Positions 2,937 to 62,080 of a stretch of 64,000 bases of DNA are shown here, piece by piece. This DNA is from Candidatus Pacearchaeota archaeon. GTDB lineage: Archaea; Nanobdellota; Nanobdellia; Pacearchaeales; GW2011-AR1. The notes below the pieces were generated by a model that saw only the letters and a program-made list of their open reading frames with translations, ran no database searches and had not been told where the DNA came from. The DNA is taken from NCBI GenBank assembly GCA_016188825.1, contig JACPHA010000011.1:7427-71426 (forward strand). Direction: 5' to 3'. Position numbers and translations under genes: made by a program. Position 1 is the first letter of the stretch. Every line of letters starts with the position of its first letter.

Positions 2937-2957
2937 ATTCGCCCCCGACAACAATCG
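2937..2957 (+). repeat. ATTCG-poly(C) motif, copy R1
   Basis: ATTCGCCCCCGACAACAATCG, 64 nt downstream of the speH stop. Member of the 7-copy same-strand family. Confidence 0.7.
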
Positions 2958-3121
2958 TGAGGAGAGAAAAGAATAAGAATTTAACTCGGTTTGCGTTGAA
3001 AACGTTTGGGATTGACAAATTTTGAAAACAGTATAATTTAAATATTTGATAAATTTTAGACTGTCTGAAAAAGAATATTGGGTTTCCTAGGGAGAAAATA
3101 GTTAGAATGTTGAAGGAGTAA

Positions 3122-3352
3122 AAAATAAAAAAAGCGGGAATTTTTGGTAGCTATGCTCGTGGAGAACAAAAGAAAGATAGTGATATTGACATACTTATAG
3201 AAGTTCCAAAAAAATTTAGTTTACTTGATTTAATTGCTCTTGAAAGGCAACTGAAAATAGTTTTGAGAAGAAAGGTGGATTTATTAACTTATAGAGACAT
3301 TAGTCCGCTTCTAAAAAAGATTATTTTAGATGAAGAGGTTCGAATAATATGA
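3122..3352 (+). pseudogene. minimal nucleotidyltransferase (MNT-type antitoxin), decayed
   Basis: Translation is KKAGIFGSYARGEQKKDSDIDILIEV... (GS-x9-DxD NTase motif). It is preceded in frame by TAA (3119-3121). The upstream ...REKIVRMLKE looks like its N-terminus. No usable start codon. Confidence 0.55.
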
Positions 3353-3441
3353 TTCAAGAATCTTTAATATTCTTAAAACACGTTTTAGAAGCGATAGAAA
3401 CCGCGGCAAAACGAAACATTTATAAATCTGTGTTACATTAA
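3349..3441 (+). pseudogene. HEPN (DUF86-type) toxin remnant, 30 codons only
   Basis: ATGA overlap with the NTase stop, the typical MNT/DUF86 arrangement. MIQESLIFLKHVLEAIETAAK resembles a DUF86 N-terminus, but the frame stops after 30 aa. Confidence 0.4.
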
Positions 3442-3495
3442 TATAACATATAATTAAATGTATGTTATTTATAGATGACATAAATATGGTATAAA

Positions 3496-4746
3496 ATGAA
3501 TAGAGAGATAGTTCAGAATTATATTAGAAAAGCGAATCCTTGGTGGCATGAGGGGAAAGAGTTTGAAATGGGTGTAAAGTACAAAGAAAGGGAGACATAT
3601 AACGAAATTATGAAGTTTTTTTCAGCAAGGCAAGTAATCGCTCTGACTGGTTTAAGAAGGGTTGGAAAAACCACTATTATGGTTAAAATTATAAAACAAG
3701 CTCTGGAAAAAAAAACAAAAAAGGAAAATATTTTTTATTTTTCTTTCGATGAGTTTTCTGAAATCAGGATAATGGATTTGGCAGAGATATATGAGAATAT
3801 TTTCGGAAAAATACGAAAATCAGATAAGTATTTTATGTTCTTCGATGAAATTCAGAAAGTAAAAAACTGGAGTGAACAACTGAAGGTTGTTTATGACTTG
3901 TATCCAAATATAAAATTTGTAATCTCCGGCTCGGAATCTTTGTTCATTAGAAAAAAATCAAGAGAGAGTTTAGCCGGAAGAATTTATGAGTTCAAAATAA
4001 GTCCGCTTAGTTTTGCAGAATTTTTGGAATTTAAGGACGTGAAAGTCAGGAACATTTTCTTGCAGAAGGAAGAAATAATGAGCGGCTTTAAACAATTTTT
4101 AATGATTAACGGCTTTCCTGAGATAGTCAATTCCAATGCTGAGGAAGCAAAAAGGTATATAAAAGAGGGAATCATAGAAAAAATCCTTTACAGAGACTTG
4201 GTTGAGGTTTTTGATGTTAAAAATCCAGCCCTAATAAAATCAATTTTTAATGTAATATACAACGAACCAGGGCAAATAATAGAAATTCAAGAATTGTCAA
4301 AGGAACTTGGAGTTTCTAGACAAACTTTATCCATATATTTAGAATATTTAGAGGAATCTTTTTTAATAAAAAAACTTTATAATTTTTCGAAAAATGCAAG
4401 AAAAACAGAGAGAAGATTGAAAAGATATTATTCTAGTTTAATTAATCCCTTATTGATAGAGTCCAATTTTTCTAAAGTATTTGAGCAATTTTTAGTGATA
4501 CAATTAGACGCAGAGTTTTTTTGGAGAGATGTATTCAAAAACGAGGTTGATATTGTTAAAACAGATATTTTGACTGCAATTGAAGTTAAATCTGGGGAAA
4601 TAAAAATGAGAGATTTAGAATCTTTAAAAAGATTTATAGAAAAGTTTAAGCCAAAAAAAGCCTGCGTTTTGTCATATGATATTGAGAAGGAAATAGAGAA
4701 AATCAAGATAATTCCTTTTTATAAGTATCTTTTAGGCAAACATTAA
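3496..4746 (+). CDS. COG1373-type AAA+ ATPase (AAA_14 + DUF4143 architecture), paralog 1
   Basis: 416 aa. N-terminal NPWW, Walker A GLRRVGKTT, Walker B FFDEIQ. Paralogous to 12182-13447. Confidence 0.8.
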   Translation: MNREIVQNYIRKANPWWHEGKEFEMGVKYKERETYNEIMKFFSARQVIALTGLRRVGKTTIMVKIIKQALEKKTKKENIFYFSFDEFSEIRIMDLAEIYENIFGKIRKSDKYFMFFDEIQKVKNWSEQLKVVYDLYPNIKFVISGSESLFIRKKSRESLAGRIYEFKISPLSFAEFLEFKDVKVRNIFLQKEEIMSGFKQFLMINGFPEIVNSNAEEAKRYIKEGIIEKILYRDLVEVFDVKNPALIKSIFNVIYNEPGQIIEIQELSKELGVSRQTLSIYLEYLEESFLIKKLYNFSKNARKTERRLKRYYSSLINPLLIESNFSKVFEQFLVIQLDAEFFWRDVFKNEVDIVKTDILTAIEVKSGEIKMRDLESLKRFIEKFKPKKACVLSYDIEKEIEKIKIIPFYKYLLGKH

Positions 4747-4783
4747 GTTCGTTCAGTTATGGAAATGGTTGTTGTGATTGCTA

Positions 4784-4812
4784 ATTTCGCCCCCCTCCCC
4801 GAAATAACAAGA
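4784..4812 (+). repeat. ATTCG-poly(C) motif, copy R2
   Basis: ATTTCGCCCCCCTCCCCGAAATAACAAGA. Flanks are also shared: the upstream side with R5, the downstream side with R4 and R6. Confidence 0.75.
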
Positions 4813-4853
4813 ATAACAGGAAGAAATAAAAAGCAAGAAAACGATAGTAAGGA

Positions 4854-5018
4854 ATGAAAAAAGAGGTTAATTATTTTTTTGTAGTTGTTCTGACAGCGTT
4901 GGTTGTTTTGGTTTTAGTTGGGAGTTATGGTTACTTTATAACTAATTCTAAAGATGAGAGTTTTTTTCTTTCGCCTGTTTTGAAGAGGTTTGTCAGGGGC
5001 GATTTTTTGATGGTTTAG
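4854..5018 (+). CDS. small membrane protein, truncated paralog of 14383-14730
   Basis: 54 aa, MKKEVNYFFVVVLTALVVLVLVGSY... Roughly 90% nt identity by eye over the first ~75 nt to the start of 14383-14730. Confidence 0.4.
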   Translation: MKKEVNYFFVVVLTALVVLVLVGSYGYFITNSKDESFFLSPVLKRFVRGDFLMV

Positions 5019-5052
5019 GAATGTTTTTATAGGATTTTTGTTTTTAGTTAGC

Positions 5053-6408
5053 ATGAATGAAATTCAAGGCATGATTGGTTTGGAGATACATGTTTATTTA
5101 ATTACGAGAGAAAAATTGTTTTGCAGATGCAAGGCAGTGAGGGAAAAGGGTTTGAGGGCAAACAGTTATATCTGCCCGATATGCACAGGAATGCCTGGAG
5201 CAAAACCGATGCTGCCGAATAAGACAGCAGTTGAAAAGGCAGTTCAAGTTGGATTGATGTTAAACTGCAGGATAAATAAGAAATTGGTTTGGCAGAGGAA
5301 ACATTATGACTGGCCTGATTTGCCAAAGGGTTTTCAAAGCACATTGTCTGGAGCAAGGGCATTTCCCGTAGGACTGAATGGAGAATTTTTTGGAATCATA
5401 GTGAGAAGCGTACATTTAGAGGAAGATCCTGCTGCATGGGATCCTGAAACAGGAAGGGTTGATTATAATAGGTCCGGATTTCCTCTAATTGAAATTATTA
5501 CAGAGCCTGATTTTTCAACTTCAGAAGAAGTTATTGATTGGCTGAAGAAGTTATTTCACAATTTAGATTATTTAAGAGCGGTTGCCTCTGATGCTGGCTT
5601 GAAAGCAGATGTTAATGTCAACTTGCCTAAAAAGACAGAGAGAGTCGAGGTTAAGAATGTTAATTCTATTGAAAATATCGGGAAAGCTATTGATTATGAA
5701 TTGGAGAGGCAGTTTAAAGAGGGAAGTGAGAGAGAGACTAGGAGATTTGACGAGGCTAAGGAAAAGACATTTAAGATGAGAGAGAAGGAAGAGGAGCAAG
5801 ATTATAGGTTTATCTCTGATCCTGATTTGCAGCCGATAATTCTTGATGATAACTTTATTTCTGAAATGAAGAAATTAATTCCAGAGTCTCCAGAGAAGAA
5901 GCTTGAGAAGCTGATTAGAAAATATAAAATAGGAAAGGCAGATGCAGAAGTGCTTGCTAAGAATTTGGATATTGTTGAATTTTTTGAAAAGGTTGCTGAA
6001 AAAGTAGAGCCGAAATTTGCTTTGTATTGGGTAACTGTTGAGCTGTTGAGGCATTTGAATTATAATAAGAAAAAATTATCAGGGCTTGACATAAAAGTTG
6101 AGCATTTTGTTGAGCTTTTGAATTTTGTCAAGAGTGGAAAAATCACAGAGCTACAAGGAAAAGAAATTTTGAATAAGTTTTATCCTAAGAGTTTTTCACC
6201 AAGGGGAATTGAAGGAAAGATAAGCAGTTCAAGCGAGCTGGAAAAAGTCTGCAGAGAAATTATGAAAAAGAACAAGGAAGCAGTTGAGAAATATAAGGAA
6301 GGCGATATTAAGGTATTAAACTTTTTGATTGGAGAGGTTATGAAGAAAACGCAGAAGAGGGCTGATTTTAGGGTTGTTAAGGAGATACTTGAGAGATTGA
6401 TGAAGTAA
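5053..6408 (+). CDS. gatB: aspartyl/glutamyl-tRNA amidotransferase subunit B
   Basis: Motifs GLEIHV, RKHYDWPDLPKGFQ, HLEEDPA, VDYNRSGFPLIEIITEPD, DYRF-x-SDPDL and a YqeY-like tail (LIGEVMKKT). ATG 5053 preferred over TTG 5038. Confidence 0.85.
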   Translation: MNEIQGMIGLEIHVYLITREKLFCRCKAVREKGLRANSYICPICTGMPGAKPMLPNKTAVEKAVQVGLMLNCRINKKLVWQRKHYDWPDLPKGFQSTLSGARAFPVGLNGEFFGIIVRSVHLEEDPAAWDPETGRVDYNRSGFPLIEIITEPDFSTSEEVIDWLKKLFHNLDYLRAVASDAGLKADVNVNLPKKTERVEVKNVNSIENIGKAIDYELERQFKEGSERETRRFDEAKEKTFKMREKEEEQDYRFISDPDLQPIILDDNFISEMKKLIPESPEKKLEKLIRKYKIGKADAEVLAKNLDIVEFFEKVAEKVEPKFALYWVTVELLRHLNYNKKKLSGLDIKVEHFVELLNFVKSGKITELQGKEILNKFYPKSFSPRGIEGKISSSSELEKVCREIMKKNKEAVEKYKEGDIKVLNFLIGEVMKKTQKRADFRVVKEILERLMK

Positions 6409-6462
6409 ACATATGTTTTTTGGAGTAACAATGTTTATAAGATACTAAATTTGCTAAATTTT

Positions 6463-7185
6463 ATGGGAAGAAATTTATTGTTGATAAGCAATTCCACTCT
6501 TCATGGCAGCGGTTATTTAGATCATTGTGAATCTGAGATAAAAAGTTTTCTTAATGACAAAGATGTTGAAAGTGTTCTTTTCATTCCTTATGCTAGACCT
6601 AGTGGAAAAACTTATGATGAATATACAGGAATTGCTAAGGAAAGGTTTCAAAGAATGGGTTTTGATTTAGTCGGGATTCAAGAACGCGTTGATTCAGATG
6701 ATGCTGTTAGAAATGCAGAAGCAATATTTATCGGCGGAGGTAATACTTTTGTTCTTCTTGATTCATTATATGGAGTAGATATTATACCTATAATTAAAGC
6801 AAGAGTTAGAAATGGAATGCCATATATTGGAACAAGTGCTGGAGCAAATGTTGCTGGAAGAACGATAATGACTACAAACGATATGCCCATTATTTATCCT
6901 CCTTGTTTTGACGCAATGGGTTTGATTCCATTTAATATAAATCCTCATTATATAGATTCTGATCCTAATTCTAAACATATGGGAGAAACGAGAGAAACGA
7001 GAATAAGAGAGTATCATGTTTTCAATGATAACACTGTTGTTGGATTGAGAGAGGGAGCAATGTTGCATGTTAAAAATAATGAAGCAACTCTTAAGGGTAG
7101 TACTGGCGCAAGAATATTCAGAAAAGGAAAAGAACCAACAGAATACCGGCCAGGAGAATCTTTGGATTTCTTGTTGACAAACTGA
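6463..7185 (+). CDS. pepE: dipeptidase E (peptidase S51)
   Basis: Contains LLLISNS, FIGGGNTFVLL and GTSAGANV (Ser nucleophile context). ATG 6463 lies downstream of TTG 6451. Confidence 0.8.
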   Translation: MGRNLLLISNSTLHGSGYLDHCESEIKSFLNDKDVESVLFIPYARPSGKTYDEYTGIAKERFQRMGFDLVGIQERVDSDDAVRNAEAIFIGGGNTFVLLDSLYGVDIIPIIKARVRNGMPYIGTSAGANVAGRTIMTTNDMPIIYPPCFDAMGLIPFNINPHYIDSDPNSKHMGETRETRIREYHVFNDNTVVGLREGAMLHVKNNEATLKGSTGARIFRKGKEPTEYRPGESLDFLLTN

Positions 7186-7227
7186 CTTGAGCAAAAAATT
7201 ATTAAATATATACTTTTTAGAAGTTTT

Positions 7228-7932
7228 ATGAGAGAATTTAGAAACAAAGCAGATGCGAGAGAAGGCAGGGAACCAGATGCGGATTTTGAGTTGTTTTACA
7301 AACTGTCAAGTTTGTATAATGCAATGACTTTTTCAGTGGTTGCACCCGTTGTTGTTGAATCCGGATTGGCTATTAAAAAAAAGGTTTCAAGAAATTCTTC
7401 TTTTGGTTATATTTTTTATGATTGCTTAGATGACGAAGAGAGAGGTTTGGAGATAGTAAGAGGAAGAAAAATTGCCGAAAGAGATGTTCAAGAACATTTC
7501 ATATTATGTGAAAAAATTAATGGGGTTTTTTATGAGATTAAGGACAGGGCTAACGAAAATAATAGAGAGGAAGTTACGGATTTAAGTAGAAAATTAGGAG
7601 AGGAGGTTATGAAATATGCTAAATTAGTTTTAAATCATGGAGAAACACTCGGAGACGAAAAAGCATTTTTGTTATATCCTGTTTGTGTCGTAGGACATTA
7701 TTTTTTTGTGAAGGGTTATAATGTCAAGCGAGAGAAAAAATTTAACGAGGAAGGAAGTTTTCAAGGCTTACAAGAAGAAGTTAGAGATATTTTCTCTGTT
7801 TTAGACAGTTTTGTTTCAGGCAAAGGTGAAGTAGCGAGAGTTGAGATAAATGATTCTGATTTGGAAGACAGAAATTCTTCTCTTGAACAATTATTAGATA
7901 TAAACAGAGGACTATGGGAAAGAATTAAATGA
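7228..7932 (+). CDS. hypothetical protein
   Basis: 234-aa ORF with no competing ORF on either strand. No motif recognised. Confidence 0.5.
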   Translation: MREFRNKADAREGREPDADFELFYKLSSLYNAMTFSVVAPVVVESGLAIKKKVSRNSSFGYIFYDCLDDEERGLEIVRGRKIAERDVQEHFILCEKINGVFYEIKDRANENNREEVTDLSRKLGEEVMKYAKLVLNHGETLGDEKAFLLYPVCVVGHYFFVKGYNVKREKKFNEEGSFQGLQEEVRDIFSVLDSFVSGKGEVARVEINDSDLEDRNSSLEQLLDINRGLWERIK

Positions 7933-7989
7933 TTTTACTTGAGTTGTTGAATTAGCAAAGTTTATAATTTTGTTTTTTGATATAGACTA

Positions 7990-8835
7990 ATGGTAACTCT
8001 TCCCGTTATTGGCTCTTTTTTAGAAGCTGCCGGAATGATTATTGAGAAAAAAATTTTGGGAAAGAGGAATATTAATTTTAAAAATTATACGGTTTATGAA
8101 TTTTTGGCAATCTTGGTTGTGATGCTCCCCATTATTTATTTTTTTTGGAGGATTGATAAGGAGGCTTTTATTTTTGGAAAACTTGCAGTTTTTATTTTGG
8201 TTGTTATTTTTTCTGTAATGGCAAATTTATTGATTTTTTATTCTTTGAAGAGAGAACATATCACAGAATTTGAGCCTGTTTGGTTGATGCAGCCATTTTT
8301 TACAATAATTCTTGCATTTATTTTTTATGAGAGCGAGAGAAATTTTTTTGGATTAGGACTTGCTTTGACGGCGAGCATTACGCTTGTTGCGAGCCATGTG
8401 AAGAAGCATCATTTTACTTTTGATAGATATATTCTCGCAGCTTTTTTAGGAAGTTTTTGTTTTTCTGTCGAGCTTGTCCTTTCGAGACTAATTCTTGATT
8501 ATTATTCTCCGTTCAGCTTGTATTTTTTACGGAGTTCATTTATTTTTTTAATAACATTTATAATTTTCAGACCGAGCTTTAAGCCTGTAATCAGAGAAAA
8601 GAAAATTGGTGCGATGATTTTATTTGTCGGTTTGATTTGGGTTTTTTACAGAGTAATTATTTATTATGGTTATCTTGCTTTTGGGATTATTTTTACAACA
8701 ACCATTTTTATACTTTCACCGGTTTTTATTTTTTTATTTGCAACTTTTTACCTGAAAGAGAAACCAACTTTAAGGTACATAATTTCAACTTTGATAATGG
8801 TAATCTGCGTTGTTCTGGCTATTTTGCTTAGATGA
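7990..8835 (+). CDS. EamA/DMT-superfamily membrane transporter
   Basis: 281 aa with about 10 hydrophobic segments in two similar halves, typical of EamA-domain permeases. Confidence 0.6.
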   Translation: MVTLPVIGSFLEAAGMIIEKKILGKRNINFKNYTVYEFLAILVVMLPIIYFFWRIDKEAFIFGKLAVFILVVIFSVMANLLIFYSLKREHITEFEPVWLMQPFFTIILAFIFYESERNFFGLGLALTASITLVASHVKKHHFTFDRYILAAFLGSFCFSVELVLSRLILDYYSPFSLYFLRSSFIFLITFIIFRPSFKPVIREKKIGAMILFVGLIWVFYRVIIYYGYLAFGIIFTTTIFILSPVFIFLFATFYLKEKPTLRYIISTLIMVICVVLAILLR

Positions 8836-8879
8836 CGTGGGAAAAGATTTATTAGCTTATTTTAGTCATTTCTTTTGTC

Positions 8880-8950
8880 AGGCTCGTAAGTTAATGGATA
8901 GACTTCCCGGCTTCGGACCGGGCAATGGGGGTTCGATTCCCCCCGAGCCT
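8880..8950 (+). tRNA. tRNA-Arg (anticodon TCG)
   Basis: Acceptor AGGCTCG/CGAGCCT, anticodon stem CCCGG/CCGGG with loop CTTCGGA, T-arm GGGGG-TTCGATT-CCCCC. No encoded CCA. Confidence 0.85.
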
Positions 8951-8996
8951 ATTTTTTAAGAGATAGATTTAATAAAGTTATTTATTTTATAGAGAA

Positions 8997-10457
8997 ATGA
9001 AAAATAAGGAAAATAAGGGCAGAGATGGGAAGGGAATAACTGCTGAAAAAGACGATTTTTCAAAATGGTTTGCCGAATTAATAATAAAAGCAGAGCTTGC
9101 GGATTATACTGCTGTTTCCGGAACGATTGTTTTTAGGCCAGCCTCTTATGCAATATGGGAGAAAATTAAGGAAGAGATTGACAAGAGATTTAAAAAATTA
9201 GGAATAAAGAATTGTTATTTTCCTTTACTGATTCCTGAAAAGAGTTTTATGAGAGAACAGGAGCATGTTAAGGGATTTAAGCCAGAGGTTGCGTGGGTTA
9301 CGTACGCAGGAGATTCAAAATTAAGCGAGAGGTTTGCCGTGAGGCCTACCTCAGAGGCAATAATGTATGAGTCTTATGCAAAATGGATAAGAAGCTGGAG
9401 GGATTTGCCTTTGAAATTGAATCAGTGGAATAATGTTTTAAGGTGGGAGTTTAAACATCCCGTGCCTTTTTTGAGAACGCGAGAATTTTTATGGAACGAA
9501 GGGCATACTGTTTATGCAACTAAAGAGGATGCGGAAAAGGAAGGGGGGGAGATAATTGGAGTTTATAGTGAAATTTGCAGAGATTATCTTGCTTTGCCCT
9601 CTTTGATTGGGAAAAAATCAGACAAGGAAAAATTCGCAGGAGCAGAGCATACGATATCAATGGAATTTTATATGCCAAATGGGAAATGTGTTCAGGGACC
9701 AGATTTTCATCATGACGGGCAGAATTTTGCTAAGGCGTATGGGATAAAATTTTTGGATAGAGATGGAAAAGAAAAATTTGCCTATCAGAATACTTTTGCG
9801 ATTTCTACAAGAATGCTTGGAGTTATGTTTGCAATTCATTCGGATTCTAGAGGTTTGATTTTGCCACCGCGAGCTGCTCCAAATAAGATTGTGATTGTGC
9901 CTATTTTATTTGATGATTCAAAGGAAAAAGTAGCGGGAAAAGCAAGGGAGATTGAAAAAACATTGAAAGAATTTAGTCCTATTTTAGATATGAGGGAAGA
10001 ATACAAGCCGGGGTTTAAGTTTAATGAGTGGGAAATGAAGGGAATTCCGTTGAGAATTGAAATTGGACCAAAGGAGCTGGATAAGGAGAGTGTTGTGATT
10101 GTTAGAAGGGATAATGGAAAAAAGGAGAATGTAAAGATAAGAAAATTAAAAGAAGAGGTTGATAGAGTTTTGGAAGAGATACAGAAGAATTTATTTGCAA
10201 GAGCTGAAAAATTGCTTAAAGATAATATTGTTAAAGTCAGAAATGTTAATGAATTGAAAAAAGCGGTTGAAAATAAGAAAATTGCTTTTGTGCCTTTGTG
10301 CGATAAAAGAGGCTGTGAAGATAATTTGAAGTTTGAGACAATTGGAGCAAAGGTTCTGAATATTCCTGATGAACAGCCTTGGGGGACTGGGAAAAACAGC
10401 TGTGTGATATGTGGGGAAGAAGCAGAGTATTTTGCGTATGTTGGGAAAAGCTACTAA
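8997..10457 (+). CDS. proS: prolyl-tRNA synthetase, archaeal/eukaryotic type
   Basis: 486 aa with class II motifs (FRPTSE-like AVRPTSE, RTREFLWNEGH). The Cys-containing C-terminal domain ends in Tyr, as in archaeal-type ProRS. Confidence 0.9.
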   Translation: MKNKENKGRDGKGITAEKDDFSKWFAELIIKAELADYTAVSGTIVFRPASYAIWEKIKEEIDKRFKKLGIKNCYFPLLIPEKSFMREQEHVKGFKPEVAWVTYAGDSKLSERFAVRPTSEAIMYESYAKWIRSWRDLPLKLNQWNNVLRWEFKHPVPFLRTREFLWNEGHTVYATKEDAEKEGGEIIGVYSEICRDYLALPSLIGKKSDKEKFAGAEHTISMEFYMPNGKCVQGPDFHHDGQNFAKAYGIKFLDRDGKEKFAYQNTFAISTRMLGVMFAIHSDSRGLILPPRAAPNKIVIVPILFDDSKEKVAGKAREIEKTLKEFSPILDMREEYKPGFKFNEWEMKGIPLRIEIGPKELDKESVVIVRRDNGKKENVKIRKLKEEVDRVLEEIQKNLFARAEKLLKDNIVKVRNVNELKKAVENKKIAFVPLCDKRGCEDNLKFETIGAKVLNIPDEQPWGTGKNSCVICGEEAEYFAYVGKSY

Positions 10458-10610
10458 CTTTTTCAGAGTCCTCGAAAATAAAATTTCTTCGAATATTTGG
10501 GAGAGTTATTAGTGAAGACGTCGAATGACCTATATTTTTTAAGAAATTTAATTACCTATAACAAGACGCCATTTTATTATATTACATATTTTTGATGAAT
10601 TATCAACGAT

Positions 10611-10712
10611 ATTATTAATTATAGTCTAGGACATTAATAATTTTCTGTTTTGTCATAGACTATCAAGGGAAAGTCATAAAATTTTGTTCAATTATTTATG
10701 ACTTTCACTATA
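10611..10712 (-). repeat. palindromic MITE-like repeat, family B copy B4 (inverted relative to the others)
   Basis: ATAGTCTAGGACA-18 nt-GTCATAGACTAT hairpin plus flank. The reverse complement aligns with 39621-39720. Confidence 0.7.
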
Positions 10713-10892
10713 CCTAATTTTATTATTATCGCGCCCTTTTTATTAATAAAAAAGAAAGGCATATTTTTAGGGTTTTTCAAAACTCTCTAGAATTTAAAAT
10801 TTTAAATTCTTAGATTATAATATTCCTTATCATTGCCTATAAATATAGAACACAATAGTAAGATTTTTAAATAGGTGAAAAATCCTTTTCAG

Positions 10893-11282
10893 ATGAGAAA
10901 ATTATTTAGTAGGGGTTTGAGAAAGGGTATTTTGACATTAGGAGTGGTTGCTTCTTCTATAGGTTATGGTTGCTGGAGAAATAATGATGGTAGGGAAGAT
11001 GTTGATAATGGAATTGAGATAGATAATCGTGAGGATTGCGAATCTGCGAATGGAGTTTGGAAAAGATGGGGGTTACTGCCTGTTGAAAGTTGCAATATAA
11101 GGGCAAATGATTTTGGAGAAAGATGTTATAACTCTTCAGAATGCGAGGGTTTGTGTTTGCTTGAGAGATGTCTTGATGATGAGTGCAGAGAAAGTATTGG
11201 AGCATGCTCAGAATTTAGAAGAGTTTATGGGTGTTTTGCAACAAGAGAAGAAGATGGGATTTATCATGTTTGTGTTGATTGA
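10893..11282 (+). CDS. Cys-rich secreted or membrane-anchored small protein
   Basis: N-terminal hydrophobic segment (GILTLGVVASSIGYGC) followed by 10 Cys in ~90 aa. ATG 10893 lies downstream of GTG 10875. Confidence 0.5.
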   Translation: MRKLFSRGLRKGILTLGVVASSIGYGCWRNNDGREDVDNGIEIDNREDCESANGVWKRWGLLPVESCNIRANDFGERCYNSSECEGLCLLERCLDDECRESIGACSEFRRVYGCFATREEDGIYHVCVD

Positions 11283-11292
11283 TTTTTTCTAA

Positions 11293-11313
11293 ATTCGTCC
11301 CCTAGATAACAAC
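11293..11313 (+). repeat. ATTCG-poly(C) motif, copy R3 (one C to T change)
   Basis: ATTCGTCCCCTAGATAACAAC, 11 nt after the stop of 10893-11282. A vestigial ATGAAAAAGATGG start follows at 11358. Confidence 0.6.
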
Positions 11314-11462
11314 TGGATGCATAGAAATTTATAAAAATCAAGAAATCCATGTTAAAAAATGAAAAAGATGGTTTCTAAGGTTAGAATTATTTACGGAAAT
11401 GTTTTGATTGTCTTAATGTTTGTTTTTCTTGGAGTGATTTTTGAGTTTGCGTTTGAGTGAAC

Positions 11463-11756
11463 TTATTTTAATTTCTGCCTTAAATTATGAAGTCTCTTTA
11501 AATATTCTTTGTAGGCTTTGTCGTGCGGACCAATTGTGAGAAGCCAAATTGTATTGCTTTCAACATAGTAGACCAGTCTTATACTTCTAGTTATTTCTTC
11601 TCTATAACAATTTTCTCCTCCGCTTAGATGTTTTAATCTCAAAGGATTTTGTTTTATCTTTTCTTTTTTCTTATAGAATATTTCGATATGCTTTTTGTCT
11701 AGTTTATCTAAATCTCGCAAGAAGTCAGGATGAAGTTTTATTATCCATTCTATCAA
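11463..11756 (-). CDS. RelE/ParE-family toxin
   Basis: 97 aa. The DFLRDLDKLDKK...IKQNP...RLVYYVESNTIWLLTIGPHDKAY pattern is typical of RelE/ParE. It overlaps the upstream antitoxin gene. Confidence 0.75.
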   Translation of the reverse strand: MIEWIIKLHPDFLRDLDKLDKKHIEIFYKKKEKIKQNPLRLKHLSGGENCYREEITRSIRLVYYVESNTIWLLTIGPHDKAYKEYLKRLHNLRQKLK

Positions 11757-11952
11757 TTTTTATACCTCTTATTCTAAGATAATTATCAAGCTCTTCTTCC
11801 GACGTACTAATTGAAGGATTTGTTTTAATATCGACTAGTCTTTTTTTAGCAATCTCATCTTGGTTTAAAAGTGAGGCCACGTCTTCTATAAGTACTTCTA
11901 CATCAAACAATACTTTGTTCAATTTATCTGCCGGGATTGTTATCAATGCCAT
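11725..11952 (-). CDS. antitoxin partner of the RelE/ParE toxin
   Basis: 75-aa ORF immediately upstream of the toxin and overlapping it. Confidence 0.55.
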   Translation of the reverse strand: MALITIPADKLNKVLFDVEVLIEDVASLLNQDEIAKKRLVDIKTNPSISTSEEELDNYLRIRGIKIDRMDNKTSS

Positions 11953-12010
11953 AATTTTTTAGAACAAAACAAGTTTAAATAGTTAATGTTTACTGATTTT
12001 ATTTTTCTGA

Positions 12011-12035
12011 ATTCGCCCCCCCGGTAACATCAAGA
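12011..12035 (+). repeat. ATTCG-poly(C) motif, copy R4
   Basis: ATTCGCCCCCCCGGTAACATCAAGA. The downstream ~55 nt is shared with R2 and R6 and ends in ATGAAAAAGAGGG. Confidence 0.75.
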
Positions 12036-12181
12036 AAACAGAAGAAACAAAAAGCGAGAAAACGATGTTATGGAATGAAAAAGAGGGTTTTGGAAACGGA
12101 TAAAATTCGTTCTGGGTCCTATAAAAACTTGACCTCTATAATAACCAAAAAGTTTAAAAACTTGACCTTTCTAGTCATCAA

Positions 12182-13447
12182 ATGGAAATAGAAGATTTTA
12201 ATCCATGGTGGAAAATAGGAACAATAAGCGAGGAATACAAGAAGCTTAAAAAAAGAAAACTTTTTTATGAAGTAAAAAAATATGTTAAAGACAAACAAAT
12301 AATTGTCGTTACGGGATTAAGAAGAACAGGAAAAACAGTATTGCTTTATCATTTAATAGAGGATTTAATTGAAAAAGAAGTTAAACCTCAAAACGTTACT
12401 TATTTTAATTTTGATCTTTCGATAAAGACTCTTGAAGAAATCTTCGAGAATTACAAAAAAATTAACGATATTGATTACAAAAAAGAAAAGATTTACGTTT
12501 TCTTTGATGAAATACAAAAATTAGATGACTGGCAGAATAAAATAAAGATTTTTTATGACAATTATCAAAATATTAAATTCTTTGTTTCGGGCTCTAGCGG
12601 CCTTTTCATAGAGAAAAAAACAAAAGAAAGTCTTGCAGGAAGAAGTTTTAGTTTCAGGCTTTTTCCATTAAAATTTTTAGAATATTTGGAGTTGAGGGGA
12701 AAGGAGGATATTTCTTATAAACCTCTTTTATTCAAAGAAGAAATAAAAAAAGAAATTGAGCATTATATCAAAAGCGGCGGATTTCCGGAGCTTATTGCAG
12801 AAAAAGACGATGTAAAGATAAAGAGATATGTTAAAGAATTAATAATAGACAAAATTGTTTATATAGATATCCCCAAAGTTTTTGAAATAGATGAGCCGGA
12901 GCTTTTGCAAAGACTTATTTCAATTATATCCTCTTCGCCAGGTTTAACTATCGACTATGATGGCCTTGCTAGTGACTTGGGCAGAAATAGAAAAACAATT
13001 TCTAATTATTTATCTTATCTTGAAAACTCTTTTATTATAAAGAAACTATATAACTTTAGTAAAAATTTACTAACAAGCGAGAAAAAGAAAAAAAGATTTT
13101 ATCCTTCAACAACCGCTCTTTCTTTTTTATTTAATGCAGAAAGAGGCAGGATAATTGAGAACGTTATTTTGCAAAATTCTGAAATTGATTATTTTTATAG
13201 GAAAGGAGATAAAGAAATAGATTTCATTTATAATAAAGACAAGAAAACTTTTTTATTAGAGTCAAAATTCAGAAAGGAATTCAACAAAGAAATAAAACAA
13301 AGCATGCTCTATTTTATGAAAAAATTCAAGACAGATAGTGGTATTATAATAACAGAAGATTATGAGGCAGAAGAAAAAGCAGAATGGTTTGGAAAAAAGG
13401 CAAAAATTAAGTTTGTTCCGTTATGGAAATGGCTGTTGCAATTTTAA
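12182..13447 (+). CDS. COG1373-type AAA+ ATPase (AAA_14 + DUF4143 architecture), paralog 2
   Basis: 421 aa. NPWW, Walker A GLRRTGKTV, Walker B FFDEIQ, C-terminal KFVPLWKWLLQF. Confidence 0.8.
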   Translation: MEIEDFNPWWKIGTISEEYKKLKKRKLFYEVKKYVKDKQIIVVTGLRRTGKTVLLYHLIEDLIEKEVKPQNVTYFNFDLSIKTLEEIFENYKKINDIDYKKEKIYVFFDEIQKLDDWQNKIKIFYDNYQNIKFFVSGSSGLFIEKKTKESLAGRSFSFRLFPLKFLEYLELRGKEDISYKPLLFKEEIKKEIEHYIKSGGFPELIAEKDDVKIKRYVKELIIDKIVYIDIPKVFEIDEPELLQRLISIISSSPGLTIDYDGLASDLGRNRKTISNYLSYLENSFIIKKLYNFSKNLLTSEKKKKRFYPSTTALSFLFNAERGRIIENVILQNSEIDYFYRKGDKEIDFIYNKDKKTFLLESKFRKEFNKEIKQSMLYFMKKFKTDSGIIITEDYEAEEKAEWFGKKAKIKFVPLWKWLLQF

Positions 13448-13475
13448 ATTCGCCCCCACCCTCGAAATAACAAGG
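13448..13475 (+). repeat. ATTCG-poly(C) motif, copy R5
   Basis: ATTCGCCCCCACCCTCGAAATAACAAGG, starting directly after the ATPase stop codon. Confidence 0.75.
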
Positions 13476-13618
13476 CACATAAAAGAATATAAAAACCTCT
13501 GAGAACTTAAATTGTCAAGAGCGACGTAAAGTTAAAGTTGTGTGAACCATATGCAGACTTAGTTACTAAGAGTGAAAGGATAAGAAAGTTTTTTATATAT
13601 TAATTTGTTTATGCAGTT

Positions 13619-13993
13619 ATGAAAGATGAAGCAGGCAAATGGCTAAAACAGGCAAAAGCAGACTTAAGGACAGCCAGAAATAGTCTTAAAAGCAAAGACT
13701 TTTATGCCTCTGTTTTCTGGTCTCAGCAGGCTGTTGAAAAAAGTTTGAAGGCAGTAATTATAGAAAAAATCGGAGAACTTATTAAAATTCATGATTTAGT
13801 CATTTTAGGAAGGAAATCTGCTATTCCTGATAAGCTCTCAATTGATTGCGAGAGACTTTCCAAAATTTATATAGACTCGCGATATGGGGTTATAGACAAT
13901 GAAATTCCTGCTGAGAAATTTGGCAAAAAAGAAGCAGATGAATTTTTGAAAATAGCAAGGAGTATTTTAAAATGGTGCGAAAAAGAGATTTAG
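13619..13993 (+). CDS. HEPN-domain protein
   Basis: 124 aa. WLKQAKADLRTARNSL...FWSQQAVEKSLKA...IHDL... matches the classical HEPN fold pattern. Overlaps the following NTase gene. Confidence 0.75.
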   Translation: MKDEAGKWLKQAKADLRTARNSLKSKDFYASVFWSQQAVEKSLKAVIIEKIGELIKIHDLVILGRKSAIPDKLSIDCERLSKIYIDSRYGVIDNEIPAEKFGKKEADEFLKIARSILKWCEKEI

Positions 13994-14289
13994 AAATTGT
14001 AAGAGAGTTCAAGGAAAAGTTATCAAGAAAAATACCTGTAAAAAAAGTTATTTTATTTGGCAGCCGTGTCAAAGGAGAGATTCATAAATGGAGCGATTTT
14101 GATATTGTCGTTGTCAGCGATAAATTCAGGGGAGAGAAATCCTATCAAAGAGGAATTGGGTTTTACAGCTATTGGAAAGAAGATTATCCTGTTGATTTCT
14201 TATGCTACACGCCGGAAGAGTTTGAGAGATTAAGGAAAAAGATAACCATAGTTAGAGAAGCGGTTAAAGAGGGAATTGTTATTGAATAA
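13972..14289 (+). CDS. nucleotidyltransferase (MNT-type) partner of the HEPN protein
   Basis: 105 aa. LFGSRVKGEIHKWSDFDIVVV carries the GS-x9-11-DxD pol-beta NTase motif. Confidence 0.8.
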   Translation: MVRKRDLEIVREFKEKLSRKIPVKKVILFGSRVKGEIHKWSDFDIVVVSDKFRGEKSYQRGIGFYSYWKEDYPVDFLCYTPEEFERLRKKITIVREAVKEGIVIE

Positions 14290-14312
14290 TAAAGCAGGCG
14301 GTTTTTTCCTAC

Positions 14313-14340
14313 ATTCGCCCCCCCCCCCGATAATGACAAG
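14313..14340 (+). repeat. ATTCG-poly(C) motif, copy R6 (C11 tract)
   Basis: ATTCG + 11 C (14318-14328) + GATAATGACAAG. Confidence 0.75.
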
Positions 14341-14382
14341 AAGAAGAGAAAGAGATATAAAGCTTTTTGACGGTTTAATGGA

Positions 14383-14730
14383 ATGAAAGAAGAGGTTAAT
14401 TATTTTTTTGTGGTTGTTCTGATAGCTTTAGTTGTTTTGGTTTTGCTAGGGAGTTATTTGACAGGGCAGGGGATTTTTGATTTTTTAAGAGAAGGAAGAC
14501 TTTCACCGTTAAGAACAGAATTAGCTTCTCAAGAATTGGATGAAATAAAACAAGCTAAAGAAAAAATAGCAGAAAGTAGTGAACACGATTTCTCTACAAT
14601 GTACAATCTTCTTGGAAAAAATAAGAATAAAAAAGATAAAATATTAAAAATATGCGGCGAGTTTGATCCTATTTATTGCTTAAAAAAGGCTTCACAGCAA
14701 AATCCTGATTTAAGAGGCGAAATTTGTTAA
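14383..14730 (+). CDS. membrane-anchored hypothetical protein (full-length version of 4854-5018)
   Basis: 115 aa. N-terminal TM segment MKEEVNYFFVVVLIALVVLVLLGSY followed by a charged soluble part. Confidence 0.55.
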   Translation: MKEEVNYFFVVVLIALVVLVLLGSYLTGQGIFDFLREGRLSPLRTELASQELDEIKQAKEKIAESSEHDFSTMYNLLGKNKNKKDKILKICGEFDPIYCLKKASQQNPDLRGEIC

Positions 14731-14881: not shown

Positions 14882-16213
14882 ATGGCAAACTTGAAATTTG
14901 GACCAGGGGATTATGTAAAGTTAAGACTTGCGCTTGAGGAAATAGAGGGAAGGGTTTTGGAAAGCCCAGATAACGGCGTGATTTTATTAAAATTGAATTC
15001 AGGATATAATATTGGGATTTCTAAGGATAATATTCTCGGGGCGAGAGTTATAAGAAAGTTCAAAGAGGAAAAGGAAAAATTTGAATTACCGCTTACAAAA
15101 AGTTTGCCGAGTCCAAAGAATATGAAATTCTCCGGCCTTGAAAGTTCGACGAAAAGAAAAGACGAACTTCCAAGCATTGGAATGGTTGTGACAGGAGGCA
15201 CAATTGCGAGCAAGGTTGATGCGAAAACCGGGGGCGTAAAACCAGTGGTTGATATTGGTGAATTTGCGAAGTTTTACCCTGAGATGTTTAAGATTGTGAA
15301 TGTGAAAAAAATAGACGAGCCCTTTATGTTGGATTCTTCTCAGATGAACTATGAGCATTGGTTTAAGATTGCAGAGAGTGTTAAGAAAATGCTGGATGAT
15401 AATGAAATTAGTGGTGTTATTGTGACGCATGGAACTGATACTTTGCACTATACTGCAGCGGCTTTGTCGTTTTTCTTAAGGAATTTGAACAAACCTGTTG
15501 TTCTGACATTTAGCCAGAGGAGTGGTGATAGGGCAAGCAGTGATGCGAATTTAAATTTGCATTGCGCTGCACGAGTCGCTATTTCTGATTTAGCAGAGGT
15601 TGTTTTAGTGGGGCACGGAAGCACAAATGATGATTTTTGCTATGCGATGAGAGGAACTAAAGTCAGGAAAATGCATAGCTCGAGAAGAGATGCTTTTAAA
15701 CCTATTAACATAAATCTCATTGCAAAAGTCTGGCCGGATAGAGTAGAATTTATTTCTCAGCATAGAGCAAGAAATAAAGAAAAAGTAGAGTTGGATTTAA
15801 ACTATACAGACAAAGTTGCTTTAGTTAAGTTTTATCCAGGACAGGACCCGTCAATTCTTGATTTCTATGCTTTAAAATATAAAGGGATTGTTATTGAAGG
15901 AGTTGGATTGGGGCATGTTGGAACGAGTGGTGTGCATCATAACTGGATTCCGAAATTAAAAAAGCACGTCAGAAATGGTTTTGTTGTTTGCATGATATCT
16001 CAAACAATTTTTGGCAAGGTAGATGAGTATGTTTATCATGTTGGCAGGGAGTTAAGAGATGCAGGAGTTATATTCTTGGATGACATGCTTTCTGAAACAG
16101 CATGGATAAAGTTAGGATGGGTTCTTGGGCATTATGGCTGGAAGAAAAATATAAAGGAAAAAATGCTTGAAAATTTTGCGGGAGAGATAAATGGGAGACT
16201 TGGGATTGAATAA
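14882..16213 (+). CDS. gatD: Glu-tRNA(Gln) amidotransferase subunit D
   Basis: 443 aa. GatD-specific N-terminal domain (GDYVKL...LKLNSGYNIGI) plus an asparaginase core (VVTGGTIAS, VTHGTDTL). Confidence 0.9.
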   Translation: MANLKFGPGDYVKLRLALEEIEGRVLESPDNGVILLKLNSGYNIGISKDNILGARVIRKFKEEKEKFELPLTKSLPSPKNMKFSGLESSTKRKDELPSIGMVVTGGTIASKVDAKTGGVKPVVDIGEFAKFYPEMFKIVNVKKIDEPFMLDSSQMNYEHWFKIAESVKKMLDDNEISGVIVTHGTDTLHYTAAALSFFLRNLNKPVVLTFSQRSGDRASSDANLNLHCAARVAISDLAEVVLVGHGSTNDDFCYAMRGTKVRKMHSSRRDAFKPININLIAKVWPDRVEFISQHRARNKEKVELDLNYTDKVALVKFYPGQDPSILDFYALKYKGIVIEGVGLGHVGTSGVHHNWIPKLKKHVRNGFVVCMISQTIFGKVDEYVYHVGRELRDAGVIFLDDMLSETAWIKLGWVLGHYGWKKNIKEKMLENFAGEINGRLGIE

Positions 16214-30721: not shown

Positions 30722-31582
30722 TTATAACTTAACATAAAGATTACTTGGATAATCTTTAATTCCCCTATGAAATCTTTTATCATTAAACCAAACCCTCCAT
30801 TCTTCTAATTTTCCGTCAATCCAATGTTTGAACTTACTTAACAAATTGACAAATTCTTCCACTAAATTTCTAATCGTCCTCTCAACTTTACCCTTATCTT
30901 GAGGATAATATGGGCGGGCAAATAGTGGATTAATTTTGTTTTCTATGCACCATTCTTTCCACTTTTCTCTGAGTTGTCCGCCATTATCAGCTAAAATATT
31001 TTCTGGCTTTATATTTAACTTCTGTAAAACAGAAGTTAATTCATCGGTTGTTGGACAATGATCAAATAGATTTAAACCTATAATAAATCTAGAATAATCA
31101 TCAATACAAACAAAAATATAATATTTCTTTCCTTCAAATTTAAATTCTTTCAAGTCAACTTGCCATAATTCATTTGCATATTTTGCTCGAAAAAACTTCC
31201 ACGTTTTTATCTTATTTTGATAACCACTAATTTTGTGTTTCTTTAGAATATTATTTATTGATGTTCTCGATAAATAAAAGTTTTGAACATAAACTTCCAT
31301 CTCCTTTAGCATAAAATCTGGAAGATTCATTAATCCCTGTTGAATTCTTGCTGTTCCCCATTTAAATGTTAATCTCATAAACAGAATCGCTATTTCAATT
31401 TCAACAGTTATTTTACTTTGTTTATTTCTAGGTAAATCTTCGAAATTTGAGTTTAGAGTTTCTGAACTCCAATACCATGTTGTTGTTCTGCTCACCCCAA
31501 ATACTTTGGCAACAACATTTATAGAGTTGCCATTCTTTATTGATTTGGTCATGAGCTTTCGTTCTTCTGGACTTAGTCTCAT
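30722..31582 (-). CDS. DDE transposase, integrase-core (rve) type, IS481-like
   Basis: N-terminal HTH (NVVAKVFGVSRTTTWYW). The catalytic region is WQVDLKEF...CIDDYSRF...ADNGGQL...YYPQDKGKVER. Confidence 0.8.
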   Translation of the reverse strand: MRLSPEERKLMTKSIKNGNSINVVAKVFGVSRTTTWYWSSETLNSNFEDLPRNKQSKITVEIEIAILFMRLTFKWGTARIQQGLMNLPDFMLKEMEVYVQNFYLSRTSINNILKKHKISGYQNKIKTWKFFRAKYANELWQVDLKEFKFEGKKYYIFVCIDDYSRFIIGLNLFDHCPTTDELTSVLQKLNIKPENILADNGGQLREKWKEWCIENKINPLFARPYYPQDKGKVERTIRNLVEEFVNLLSKFKHWIDGKLEEWRVWFNDKRFHRGIKDYPSNLYVKL

Positions 31583-31611
31583 GTACTTGGGCGGACAACC
31601 GCCCACCTCTT

Positions 31612-31770
31612 TTATTTGTTTAATATCACCAAGTAAACATCTCTTCCGAGGTATTCTTTAGGACAATTTACTTTTGCACTATTTCCAACAGGAACTACCT
31701 TTCTCTTTACAAAGCCTTCTATTTCTGTCAGTATTAGCTTAGTTTTCTTCTCTATTTTTACCTTACTCAT
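31612..31770 (-). CDS. DUF2080-like transposon-encoded small protein (AbrB/SpoVT-like)
   Basis: 52 aa, MSKVKIEKKTKLILTEIEGFVKRKVVPVGNSAKVNCPKEYLGRDVYLVILNK, directly upstream of the transposase. Confidence 0.55.
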   Translation of the reverse strand: MSKVKIEKKTKLILTEIEGFVKRKVVPVGNSAKVNCPKEYLGRDVYLVILNK

Positions 31771-31985
31771 GGAGTCGAGGAAAATTCAGTGCATCACTCG
31801 GCTTTATTCAAGTTGAAGTTGCAAACAACTATATAAGAAATCAGGACAGACATCACGGAACTGTTTGGATAATAGAATAGACGTCGGAAGCCGCACTCCG
31901 CCGAAGGCGGAAGGACAAACCTTTAGGGTGCGGAGGACATCACCTAATTTTTTGGGCTTGTTTGAGAGCTTTGAAAAACTTATAG

Positions 31986-32104
31986 TGAAAGACAAAGGTC
32001 TTTCCCTAACACATCAATGACAATATAAGAATTAAAAAATCCTTAATCCTTCGCTCTTTGCAGAGCTGCAGGAAACTGGGAAAAATTAATGTCATTGATT
32101 ATAG
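31986..32104 (+). repeat. palindromic MITE-like repeat, family B copy B2 (internally deleted form)
   Basis: About 90 nt aligns with 17512-17605. Inverted termini ATCAATGACAAT / TAATGTCATTGAT. Ends 8 nt from tRNA-Cys. Confidence 0.7.
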
Positions 32105-32111
32105 AGGAAAA

Positions 32112-32184
32112 AGCGCGGACCAGGAATCGAACCTGGGAGAAGTCGGGCTGCAGCCGACCGCAGTAACCACTGTGCCATCCGCGC
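32112..32184 (-). tRNA. tRNA-Cys (anticodon GCA)
   Basis: The reverse complement gives GCGCGGA...TCCGCGC-T (U73 discriminator), anticodon stem GTCGG/CCGAC with loop CTGCAGC, and T-arm CCAGG-TTCGATT-CCTGG. Confidence 0.85.
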
Positions 32185-32245
32185 TTACTTTTTATAAAAA
32201 CAGAAGATGCGCACATTTTTTAAACCTATTTGTATTTTATTAATC

Positions 32246-32647
32246 ATGGTCGTAGAGAGCAAGTTTATAATTCTGCCATTAACCGGAGCGATAATAGGAT
32301 ATGTTACTAATTGGGTTGCTATAAAGATGCTCTTTTGGCCGCGAAAAAAAATTTTTGGAATACAAGGTTTAGTTCCGAAGAGAAAAGAAGAAATTGCTGC
32401 GAGAATCGGAAAATCTTCCTTGTATTTTTTGCCGGAAGGAGTTGATAGGTTGACAAAATTGCCTTTTATCGGAAAAAGAGTTTCTTCTTATATCGAGTCA
32501 GGAGTGCATAAAAAGGCAAGGAGCCTTAACGACAAGAGGCTGCAGAAAATAATTGAAGAGACCGCGAGAAGAGAATTTTGGTTTATAGAAGTTTCCGGAG
32601 GTGTTTTGGGTTTTATAATTGGTTTGGTTCAGGCTCTGGCTGTTTAG
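32246..32647 (+). CDS. DUF445-family membrane protein
   Basis: LPLTGAIIGYVTNWVAIKMLFWPRKK...GLVPKRKEEIA matches the DUF445 N-terminal signature. ATG 32246 preferred. Confidence 0.6.
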   Translation: MVVESKFIILPLTGAIIGYVTNWVAIKMLFWPRKKIFGIQGLVPKRKEEIAARIGKSSLYFLPEGVDRLTKLPFIGKRVSSYIESGVHKKARSLNDKRLQKIIEETARREFWFIEVSGGVLGFIIGLVQALAV

Positions 32648-32649
32648 GA

Positions 32650-32665
32650 AACGCCCCCGATAGTG
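32650..32665 (+). repeat. degenerate ATTCG-poly(C)-like motif, copy R7
   Basis: AACGCCCCCGATAGTG starts 3 nt after the DUF445 stop and lies next to tRNA-Arg(TCT). Weakest member of the family. Confidence 0.35.
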
Positions 32666-32721
32666 CTAAAAATTCTTGCGAATTCTGGTTCTAGGAGTCC
32701 AGGGTTCAGCGTCGGAGCTAA

Positions 32722-32796
32722 CGCTCCCGATAGGATTTGAACCTATGACCCTCTGCTTAGAAGGCAGATGCTCTATCCGGGCTGAGCTACGGGAGC
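32722..32796 (-). tRNA. tRNA-Arg (anticodon TCT)
   Basis: The reverse complement gives GCTCCCG...CGGGAGC-G, D-arm GCTCAGCCCGGATAGAGC, anticodon stem TCTGC/GCAGA with loop CTTCTAA, and T-arm ATAGG-TTCAAAT-CCTAT. Confidence 0.85.
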
Positions 32797-61788: not shown

Positions 61789-62080
61789 AACTTTTCAGTT
61801 TTTCTGCGTCCTCCTTTTTAAGACGCAGATTATAAGATTTTGTGTATAATTGGAAGAACCCAGATACTTTATTATAAATTTCAATAAAATATTTTTGTAA
61901 TAGAGAAAATCTTTCACTATGATTTTTCGGAATTATTTTTATTTCATTATAAATAAAATAATCGCATAATATTACAATTGCTTTAAAAAAGTCACTAACA
62001 GCAACATTAAATCTTTCTTTTTTTATATTTTCTTCTCCAGACAGTAAAAATTCTTCAGCATTTTTTAATAACTCTTCCAT
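61748..62080 (-). CDS. HEPN-domain protein
   Basis: 110 aa. AEEFLLSGEENIKKERFNVAVSDFFKAIVILCDY...PKNHSERFSLL is a HEPN-like pattern. Overlaps the NTase gene. Confidence 0.6.
   Translation of the reverse strand: MEELLKNAEEFLLSGEENIKKERFNVAVSDFFKAIVILCDYFIYNEIKIIPKNHSERFSLLQKYFIEIYNKVSGFFQLYTKSYNLRLKKEDAEKLKSYAHELKNYIRNKK

Follow-up and report, generated by a model that had tools for sequence, protein, structure and literature searches.

Direct copies of a promoter-bearing repeat bracket small accessory modules in a Pacearchaeota genome: possible scars of serial insertion

In bacteria, tandem accretion of decayed, integrase-less elements at one attachment (att) site is established, and it is exemplified by cis-mobilisable elements (CIMEs) and islands of the ICESt1 type (PMC5704250). 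Clusters of attC sites lacking integron-integrases (CALINs), with attC sites that form hairpins, have been described from archaea, Nanoarchaeota among them (PMC9668308). Acinetobacter plasmids carry Xer-dependent dif modules, in which pdif sites of 28 bp (two partly palindromic 11-bp arms and a 6-bp spacer) flank the modules in inverse orientation (XerC/D, then XerD/C) and movement depends on a host enzyme supplied in trans (PMC6449649). In this study, we analysed a window of 64,000 nucleotides from a Candidatus Pacearchaeota archaeon (assembly GCA_016188825.1, contig JACPHA010000011.1, positions 7,427 to 71,426), a groundwater DPANN archaeon, in which an ATTCG-poly(C) motif recurs between small accessory modules. 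DPANN genomes are tiny, so that every accessory insertion is conspicuous. To our knowledge, little has been established about the routes by which toxin-antitoxin (TA) pairs, COG1373 ATPases and further small defence genes spread among archaeal genomes. The architecture described below is real, non-random and unusual: in two mini defence islands, a promoter-bearing repeat with an invariant ATTCG-poly(C) edge stands between the modules. Tentatively, we favour the view that small modules were inserted one after another, by single crossovers of the Campbell type, into a repeat unit that was duplicated each time, leaving att-like scars that are now old.

An earlier note on this DNA had listed seven strings with the motif (R1 to R7), and all seven were found where it placed them. 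The core TTCG[CT]CCCC occurs six times on the plus strand (2938, 4786, 11294, 12012, 13449 and 14314), against 0.05 occurrences expected analytically under a first-order Markov model, and not once on the minus strand (0.29 expected). All six core copies are intergenic. Runs of C are conspicuous here because C makes up just 13% of the plus strand, in a window with a GC content of 34%. The extended pattern TTTTYCTNMATTCGYCCCCN{0,8}GRTAAY (27-31 nt) matches R3, R4 and R6 and had no match in 100 shuffles. The C-run of the core spans 4-11 nt rather than 5-11 as first proposed (R3 has a T followed by four C), and ATTCG is separated from GATAAC by a variable 5 to 11 nt. A perfect 10-mer is retained in four copies despite 20-45% divergence elsewhere, and the core is unchanged in copies whose flanks are down to 54-68% identity. 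Orientation is constant, as the earlier note had claimed, even around the inverted ParE pair. A generic 3'-end motif might have been expected after ordinary core genes; within the 64 kb, no copy lies next to a junction between core genes only, which favours the earlier note. The arrangement is not an assembly artefact: Logan assemblies made independently from other sequencing runs of the same study agree exactly with the window across R1-R2 and R3-R6. R7, listed before as a degenerate copy, has only CGCCCCCGATA in common with the others and lacks ATT, and its flanks showed no significant similarity to any other copy, which makes its membership of the family doubtful. An additional candidate, ATTCGCCCC at 58484 on the minus strand, lies inside an open reading frame (ORF) of 884 aa, has only four C and was treated as a chance match.

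The motif is not a stand-alone site. It forms the 5' edge of a longer repeat of ~55-195 nt, which consists of a T-run, ATTCG-C(n), GATAACAAG, a promoter with B-recognition element (BRE) and TATA box, and the ATG of a small membrane ORF; identity between copies of this unit is 54-79%. Directly upstream of ATTCG, TTTTYCTNM is common to R3, R4 and R6, and ~85 nt downstream, ending in ATGAAAAAGAGGTT, are common to R2, R3, R4 and R6. The downstream sharing first noticed for R2, R4 and R6 was therefore correct but incomplete, as R3 also belongs here (71% identical to R2) and the stretch common to R2 and R6 is 139 nt long (79%), reaching 75 nt into paralogous small membrane ORFs. This right arm is significant in R2, R3, R4 and R6 (p<0.004) and marginal in R5 (p=0.02), which keeps the core and ~46 nt up to the TATA box. 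R1 has neither arm and consists of the core alone; its flanks have no significant similarity to those of any other copy. Homology starts uniformly at the T-run/ATTCG on the left and reaches to different distances on the right (46, 85, >100 and 139 nt). A left arm is common to R2 and R5 only and comprises ~55-60 nt (80%, p<0.002) instead of the ~35 nt given before. Left-arm homology among R3, R4, R2 and R5, suggested by MAFFT, was not significant (p=0.13-0.85).

The six copies border self-contained modules of 0.7-1.8 kb (Table 1), whose predicted contents are TA or defence-candidate genes, and which have a GC content of 28-29% versus 37-38% in the neighbouring core genes. Most of the contents proposed earlier were recovered, namely the MNT pseudogene, the two ATPases, the ParE pair and the HEPN/nucleotidyltransferase (NTase) pair; the proposed DUF86 remnant, a 30-aa ORF at 3349-3441, has no Pfam match and stays an unconfirmed assignment. 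The two ATPases are only 38% identical. The modules form two islands, A just upstream of gatE and B just upstream of gatD, within a window that encodes deoxyhypusine synthase (DHS), GatD/GatE and tRNA-splicing endonuclease and has the conserved backbone order DHS-GatE...ProRS-GatD-eIF1A-EndA. Four relatives (63-72% GatD identity) keep DHS-GatE...ProRS-GatD, followed by eIF1A and EndA where the contig continues (L004, the closest GTDB relative), and none of them carries the modules or the motif. The gap between ProRS and GatD is 4425 bp here versus 583, 855, 1323 and 2475 bp in the relatives. The modules are accessory insertions relative to this backbone, in line with what the earlier note had proposed.

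In every relative examined, the sites upstream of gatE and of gatD are variable. Since the closest relative has 72% GatD identity, intergenic DNA is not comparable, and the sole 'empty site' is an internal paralog, R2. Directly after the stop codon of ATPase 1 there are out-of-frame ATPase2-like C-terminal codons (KFVQLWKWLL and a stop) with 80% DNA identity to the end of ATPase 2; therefore, 4734-4928 is one contiguous piece made up of an ATPase 3' end, the core, the promoter and the 5' end of a small ORF. At the gatD locus, the HEPN/NTase pair splits the same piece into a left part that ends at R5 (13398-13495) and a right part that resumes at R6 (14304-14457), and ~55 nt, from the T-run/core to the TATA box, are present on both sides. 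R5/R6 compared with R2 has the geometry of an insertion that duplicates its target. Of the earlier proposal of repeated insertion at one attachment site, this much is borne out: a module lies exactly in a duplicated site, and what was duplicated is the promoter-bearing repeat of which the motif is the edge.

Table 1. Repeat copies, modules and neighbouring genes, with positions in the 64,000-nt window.
Feature	Coordinates	Strand	Description
R1	2937..2957	+	Core only (ATTCG-C5-GACAAC); 64 nt past the AdoMetDC stop; left border of island A
Decayed TA pair	3077..3441	+	MNT/NTase pseudogene with in-frame TAA (3119-3121); NTP_transf_2 E=1.2e-16 once the stop is removed
COG1373-type ATPase 1	3496..4746	+	AAA_14 and DUF4143; PADLOC PDC-S01
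R2 unit	4734..4928	+	'Empty-site' paralog; core ATTTCG-C6TC4 (4784-4812); TATA ~4824
R2 unit, left part	4734-4783	+	Out-of-frame remnant of an ATPase2-like 3' end
R2 unit, right part		+	First 75 nt of the small ORF 4854-5018
small54	4854..5018	+	Truncated small115 paralog (first 25 codons homologous); directly upstream of gatE
gatE	5053-6408	+	
tRNA-Arg(TCG)	8880-8951	+	Between the two islands, on the same strand
R3 unit	11284..11460	+	T-run, core ATTCGTCCCC (11293), promoter, 33-aa transmembrane ORF (11359-11460); island B's left border, 2 nt past the stop of the Cys-rich ORF (129 aa)
ParE-family toxin	11463-11756	-	ParE_toxin E=2.3e-5; inverted relative to the repeats
ParE upstream partner	11725-11952	-	75 aa; toxin and partner span 11463..11952
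R4 unit	12002..12095	+	T-run, core ATTCG-C7 (12011), promoter, ~20 nt remnant of a small-ORF start; between the divergent antitoxin and ATPase 2 promoters
COG1373-type ATPase 2	12182..13447	+	AAA_14 and DUF4143; PADLOC PDC-S01; stop codon abuts R5
R5 unit	13398..13495	+	ATPase 2 3' end, core ATTCG-C5AC3 (13448), ~46 nt including TATA; attL-like reading
HEPN and minimal NTase	13619..14289	+	HEPN 13619-13993, NTase 13972-14289; between R5 and R6
R6 unit	14304..14457	+	T-run, core ATTCG-C11 (14313), TATA 14354, first 75 nt of small115; attR-like reading
small115	14383..14730	+	115-aa membrane protein directly upstream of gatD
gatD	14882-16213	+	
R7	32650..32665	+	Solitary core-like string

Under the reading that we tentatively favour, the islands upstream of gatE and gatD would have been built by successive insertions of 0.7-1.8 kb into the unit, each of which would have duplicated it, so that every module came to be bracketed by direct copies on the same strand. 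Such insertions could have been single-crossover (Campbell-type) integrations of small circular DNAs at one site. The process would then amount to tandem accretion of integrase-less modules of the cis-mobilisable type, with the enzyme acting in trans or since lost. The single core, the constant left edge, the variable right arms and the uniform orientation fit repeated single crossovers, and the nested homology fits junctions of the attL/attR type: direct repeats with an identical core flank the modules, with a left arm in R2/R5 and a right arm in R2/R3/R4/R6. Circular intermediates, crossing over at the core and the action of a site-specific recombinase, as opposed to homologous recombination, are our inference. 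CIMEs and ICESt1-type islands resemble this locus in the direct, co-oriented att-like repeats that bracket modules without an integrase of their own, in the nested left-arm and right-arm homology and in the decay of elements (PMC5704250). Unlike them, the Pacearchaeota modules are far smaller and reside in an archaeal host, the target is a promoter region instead of a tRNA or the 3' end of a gene, and there is no known integrase, the putative sites being known from sequence only.

Several observations weigh against this reading. No tyrosine or serine recombinase was found in the 64 kb, in agreement with the earlier note (Pfam on all large ORFs, NCBIfam on unannotated ORFs), and the sole transposase there belongs to an unrelated rve-type insertion sequence (30722-31606). 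No dyad symmetry or hairpin was found at the core, and the variable spacing between ATTCG and GATAAC is ill-suited to the rigid core of a recombinase with two half-sites. The copies have diverged, so that no recent event is visible, and assemblies from five runs of the same study gave one arrangement with no alternative junctions at the borders. None of the other genomes, metagenomes or viral contigs searched contained the motif. In other Nanoarchaeota, ATPase 2 orthologs (62-65%) occupy different contexts that lack the motif and flanking repeats. A third NTase/HEPN pair in the window (61252-62080, minus strand) lacks a flanking motif, so that TA modules of this genome are not bordered by the motif as a rule. 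Finally, at junction 4733, ATPase 1 runs into the final 45 nt of an ATPase2-like gene, with the conserved C-terminal PxWKWLL codons as the point of fusion; this shows turnover by replacement within a module, between paralogous ATPase ends and away from the core. The copies are old, with 65-84% identity, and as recombination sites they are probably inactive; nothing points to present activity or to a wider family.

The fusion at 4733 also suits a neutral history, in which extra copies of the unit arose when paralogs of the small ORF and of COG1373 genes recombined unequally or homologously. No dedicated site would have existed, modules would have been shuffled by illegitimate or homeologous recombination, and the core would merely be the best-preserved part of a repeat. 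A fusion that arose between paralogs and not at the core speaks for such a history, as do the age of the copies and the variability of both island positions in all relatives. We nevertheless regard it as rather unlikely. R1 has the core alone, while TTCGCCCCC is expected by chance only 0.05 times per window, and the perfect 10-mer stands out against the divergence around it. Moreover, homology starts at the core on the left in all copies but the R2/R5 pair, and homologous recombination would leave varying limits on either side.

The promoter within the unit raises a more serious alternative. In an upstream scan, the ATG of most genes in the window was preceded by a TATA-like box at a distance of 27-29 nt, which implies that transcription in this Pacearchaeota genome is predominantly leaderless. 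In the repeat, the TATA box lies at -29 (R2) and -27 (R6), and in R2, R3, R4 and R6 a distance of 62-69 nt separates the core from the ATG downstream. With this genome-typical layout, the shared 'leader' is a predicted promoter plus the first codons of the small ORF, and the units in which both TATA and ATG are retained probably continue to drive leaderless transcription. Because the motif is the edge of a promoter-bearing repeat, a cis-regulatory reading is a serious rival. The core would be an operator or activator site at a near-constant distance from the ATG, and hence from the transcription start, of a family of leaderless promoters, with no role in recombination; the units would be paralogous promoter copies spread by segmental duplication, and each module would simply have one. 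The fully conserved blocks of R2, R3, R4 and R6 are the core, TATA and ATG regions, as a working promoter would keep them, and this further counts against insertion scars. In addition, the intact core amid diverged flanks implies selection, R5 and R1 retain a TATA-like box ~37-40 nt past the core, and R4 sits midway between two divergent promoters. Promoter reuse before unrelated genes is documented, and as in the putative mobile promoters described, near-identical promoter segments precede unrelated genes of one genome (PMC3575422). Here, in contrast, the copies also bracket inserted modules, and one pair flanks an insertion.

It is these features, the bracketing of each module and the split-site geometry of R5/R6 versus R2, that a cis-regulatory element leaves unexplained. 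The genes for HEPN, ATPase 2 and ATPase 1 have TATA boxes of their own at -25 to -29, nearer to their ATGs, R1 would drive merely a pseudogene, and the third NTase/HEPN pair and all other genes in the 64 kb lack the core. A poly-C of variable length (5-11 nt) would also be unusual within a binding site. Taken together, we consider the regulatory explanation the main rival, possible though unlikely.

A CALIN needs no adjacent integrase, and no IntI-type (Phage_integrase) match was present among the large ORFs of the window. The islands resemble integron arrays and CALINs in their tandem order of short TA-rich modules, in the repeated site between neighbours and in the lack of an integrase close by, and CALINs are the commonest integron form in archaea, with frequent TA cassettes (PMC9668308). 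However, neither strand of the 121-nt regions around the six copies folds (z -1.09 to +1.20), RNAalifold returned 0 conserved pairs, and no local inverted repeats occur at the copies. Between 2700 and 15000, neither strand has a single RYYYAAC...GTTRRRY (R''/R') pair 40-160 nt apart, so that the earlier statement that this is not a canonical integron stands. The modules have their own promoters, in contrast to integron cassettes, whose sites come after a promoterless ORF; here, the sites precede a promoter. Furthermore, one module is inverted between sites that keep the common orientation, and each island ends with a module that lacks a closing site. Membership in CALINs is already refuted by the missing hairpin and core sites, and an integron-type array without its integrase is thus a most improbable explanation.

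We likewise give very little weight to the idea that the cores are 3'-end fragments left by integrative elements that target tRNA-Arg(TCG), whose 3' end is GATTCCCCCCGAGCC. This tRNA gene lies between the islands on their strand, and its ATTC-C6-GA resembles ATTCG-C(n)-GA. The likeness extends over only ~13 nt with one mismatch, no resemblance to a T-arm or acceptor stem exists upstream of the cores, and Rfam detected no partial tRNA at any copy at E<=1. R1 and R2 are upstream of the tRNA, and core genes of conserved synteny (ProRS) separate it from island B. In the search for known RNA families, Rfam gave tRNAs only, both at the gathering threshold and at E<=1. A generic terminator was rejected as well, as no plus-strand gene ends upstream of R4, and R2 and R5 lack a T-run. 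Acinetobacter dif modules are also small, often TA-encoding and bounded by short sites (PMC6449649). Dif-like sites are excluded here, since the copies show no dyad, vary in spacing and all face in one direction.

It is tempting to think of a promoter-linked, hairpin-less site for cassette capture in DPANN archaea, at which a trans-acting enzyme that goes unrecognised in the window inserts and excises small defence or TA modules at ATTCG-C(n), each newcomer gaining a leaderless promoter. We regard this as improbable. The enzyme could be a host Xer-like recombinase or the COG1373 ATPase itself. In an alignment of the ATPases, a C-terminal D...E-x-K pattern was seen by eye that could represent a nuclease motif of the PD-(D/E)xK type. 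Such a capture site, if true, would be functionally analogous to an integron, with another site and another enzymology.

A recombination platform extending beyond this lineage found no support in the databases searched. The extended pattern had 0 matches in 596 Gb of GTDB species representatives and 0 in JGI metagenome contigs, and looser patterns in GTDB, JGI metagenomes and IMG/VR gave only unrelated chance matches in coding or high-GC regions. One unrelated 1-kb metagenome contig (L103:43-172, minus strand) has two copies, 104 nt apart, of GATTCGCCCCCAAG[GT]GATAATGACAAGCCCC; this pair is a chance pattern match from a different repeat family. Exact-protein look-ups with GatD, ATPase 2, AdoMetDC and ParE returned only identical arrangements from one study, and ProRS had no entry. 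Among 5.8e9 protein clusters, no GatD exceeded 72% identity, and the lineage is therefore isolated in public data. As far as visible, the repeat appears to be private to it. The GatD protein has 443 aa here, compared with 407-446 aa (mostly 416-430) among the 119 closest relatives listed.

The ATPase 2 gene has a promoter/operator region (12118-12181) in which ACTTGACCTTTNTAATAACC forms a tandem repeat of two copies that overlaps the TATA box. The tandem repeat is also present upstream of orthologs (62-65%) in other Nanoarchaeota (L096:7940-8000, L098:7940-8000, L101:7940-8000), and probably represents an autoregulatory operator carried along with the gene. The motif was also considered as a 3' element of the COG1373 gene and rejected, as the same three orthologs keep the promoter/operator and lack the motif and flanking repeats. 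A PDB search with ATPase 2 gave merely compositional matches to designer pentatricopeptide repeat (PPR) proteins. In protein searches, small115 had no relatives and is an orphan.

Other variable spots were observed. In L004 (CAYIOA010000014.1), gatE is flanked by a direct repeat of ~130 nt (1773-1902 and 3665-3793) with 99% identity over 82 nt and short palindromes seen by eye, e.g. AACCGCACACTAAAGTGTGCGGT. It looks like an element resembling miniature inverted-repeat transposable elements (MITEs) or repetitive extragenic palindromes (REPs), private to L004 and at the same variable positions as the islands. In our window, an AT-rich non-coding stretch of ~430 nt (10458-10892) between ProRS and the Cys-rich 129-aa ORF is absent from the relatives and holds several short hairpins, e.g. 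at 10621-10663 and 10666-10709. The region 30722-32796 is probably another variable spot: the rve-type DDE transposase (minus strand) adjoins tRNA-Cys (32111-32185, minus strand), a truncated DUF445 ORF (32207-32647), the R7 string and tRNA-Arg(TCT) (32722-32796, minus strand). The alanyl-tRNA synthetase (46354-48501) has a Pfam match to a HAD-type hydrolase (aa 235-315) between two tRNA-synt_2c stretches.

In summary, our preferred, though tentative, reading of the locus is tandem accretion of modules without an integrase, a process already known in bacteria, and a regulatory origin is its serious rival. Its wider significance is limited because a single lineage and old events are concerned. 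If the repeat is only a reused promoter, the islands represent a neat but ordinary case of promoter duplication in a small defence island. If the copies are true att-type junctions, integrase-less mini-modules would accrete at a promoter-bearing archaeal site by a route other than that of integrons, and ATTCG-C(n)-GATAAC would be a concrete sequence to try against candidate enzymes.

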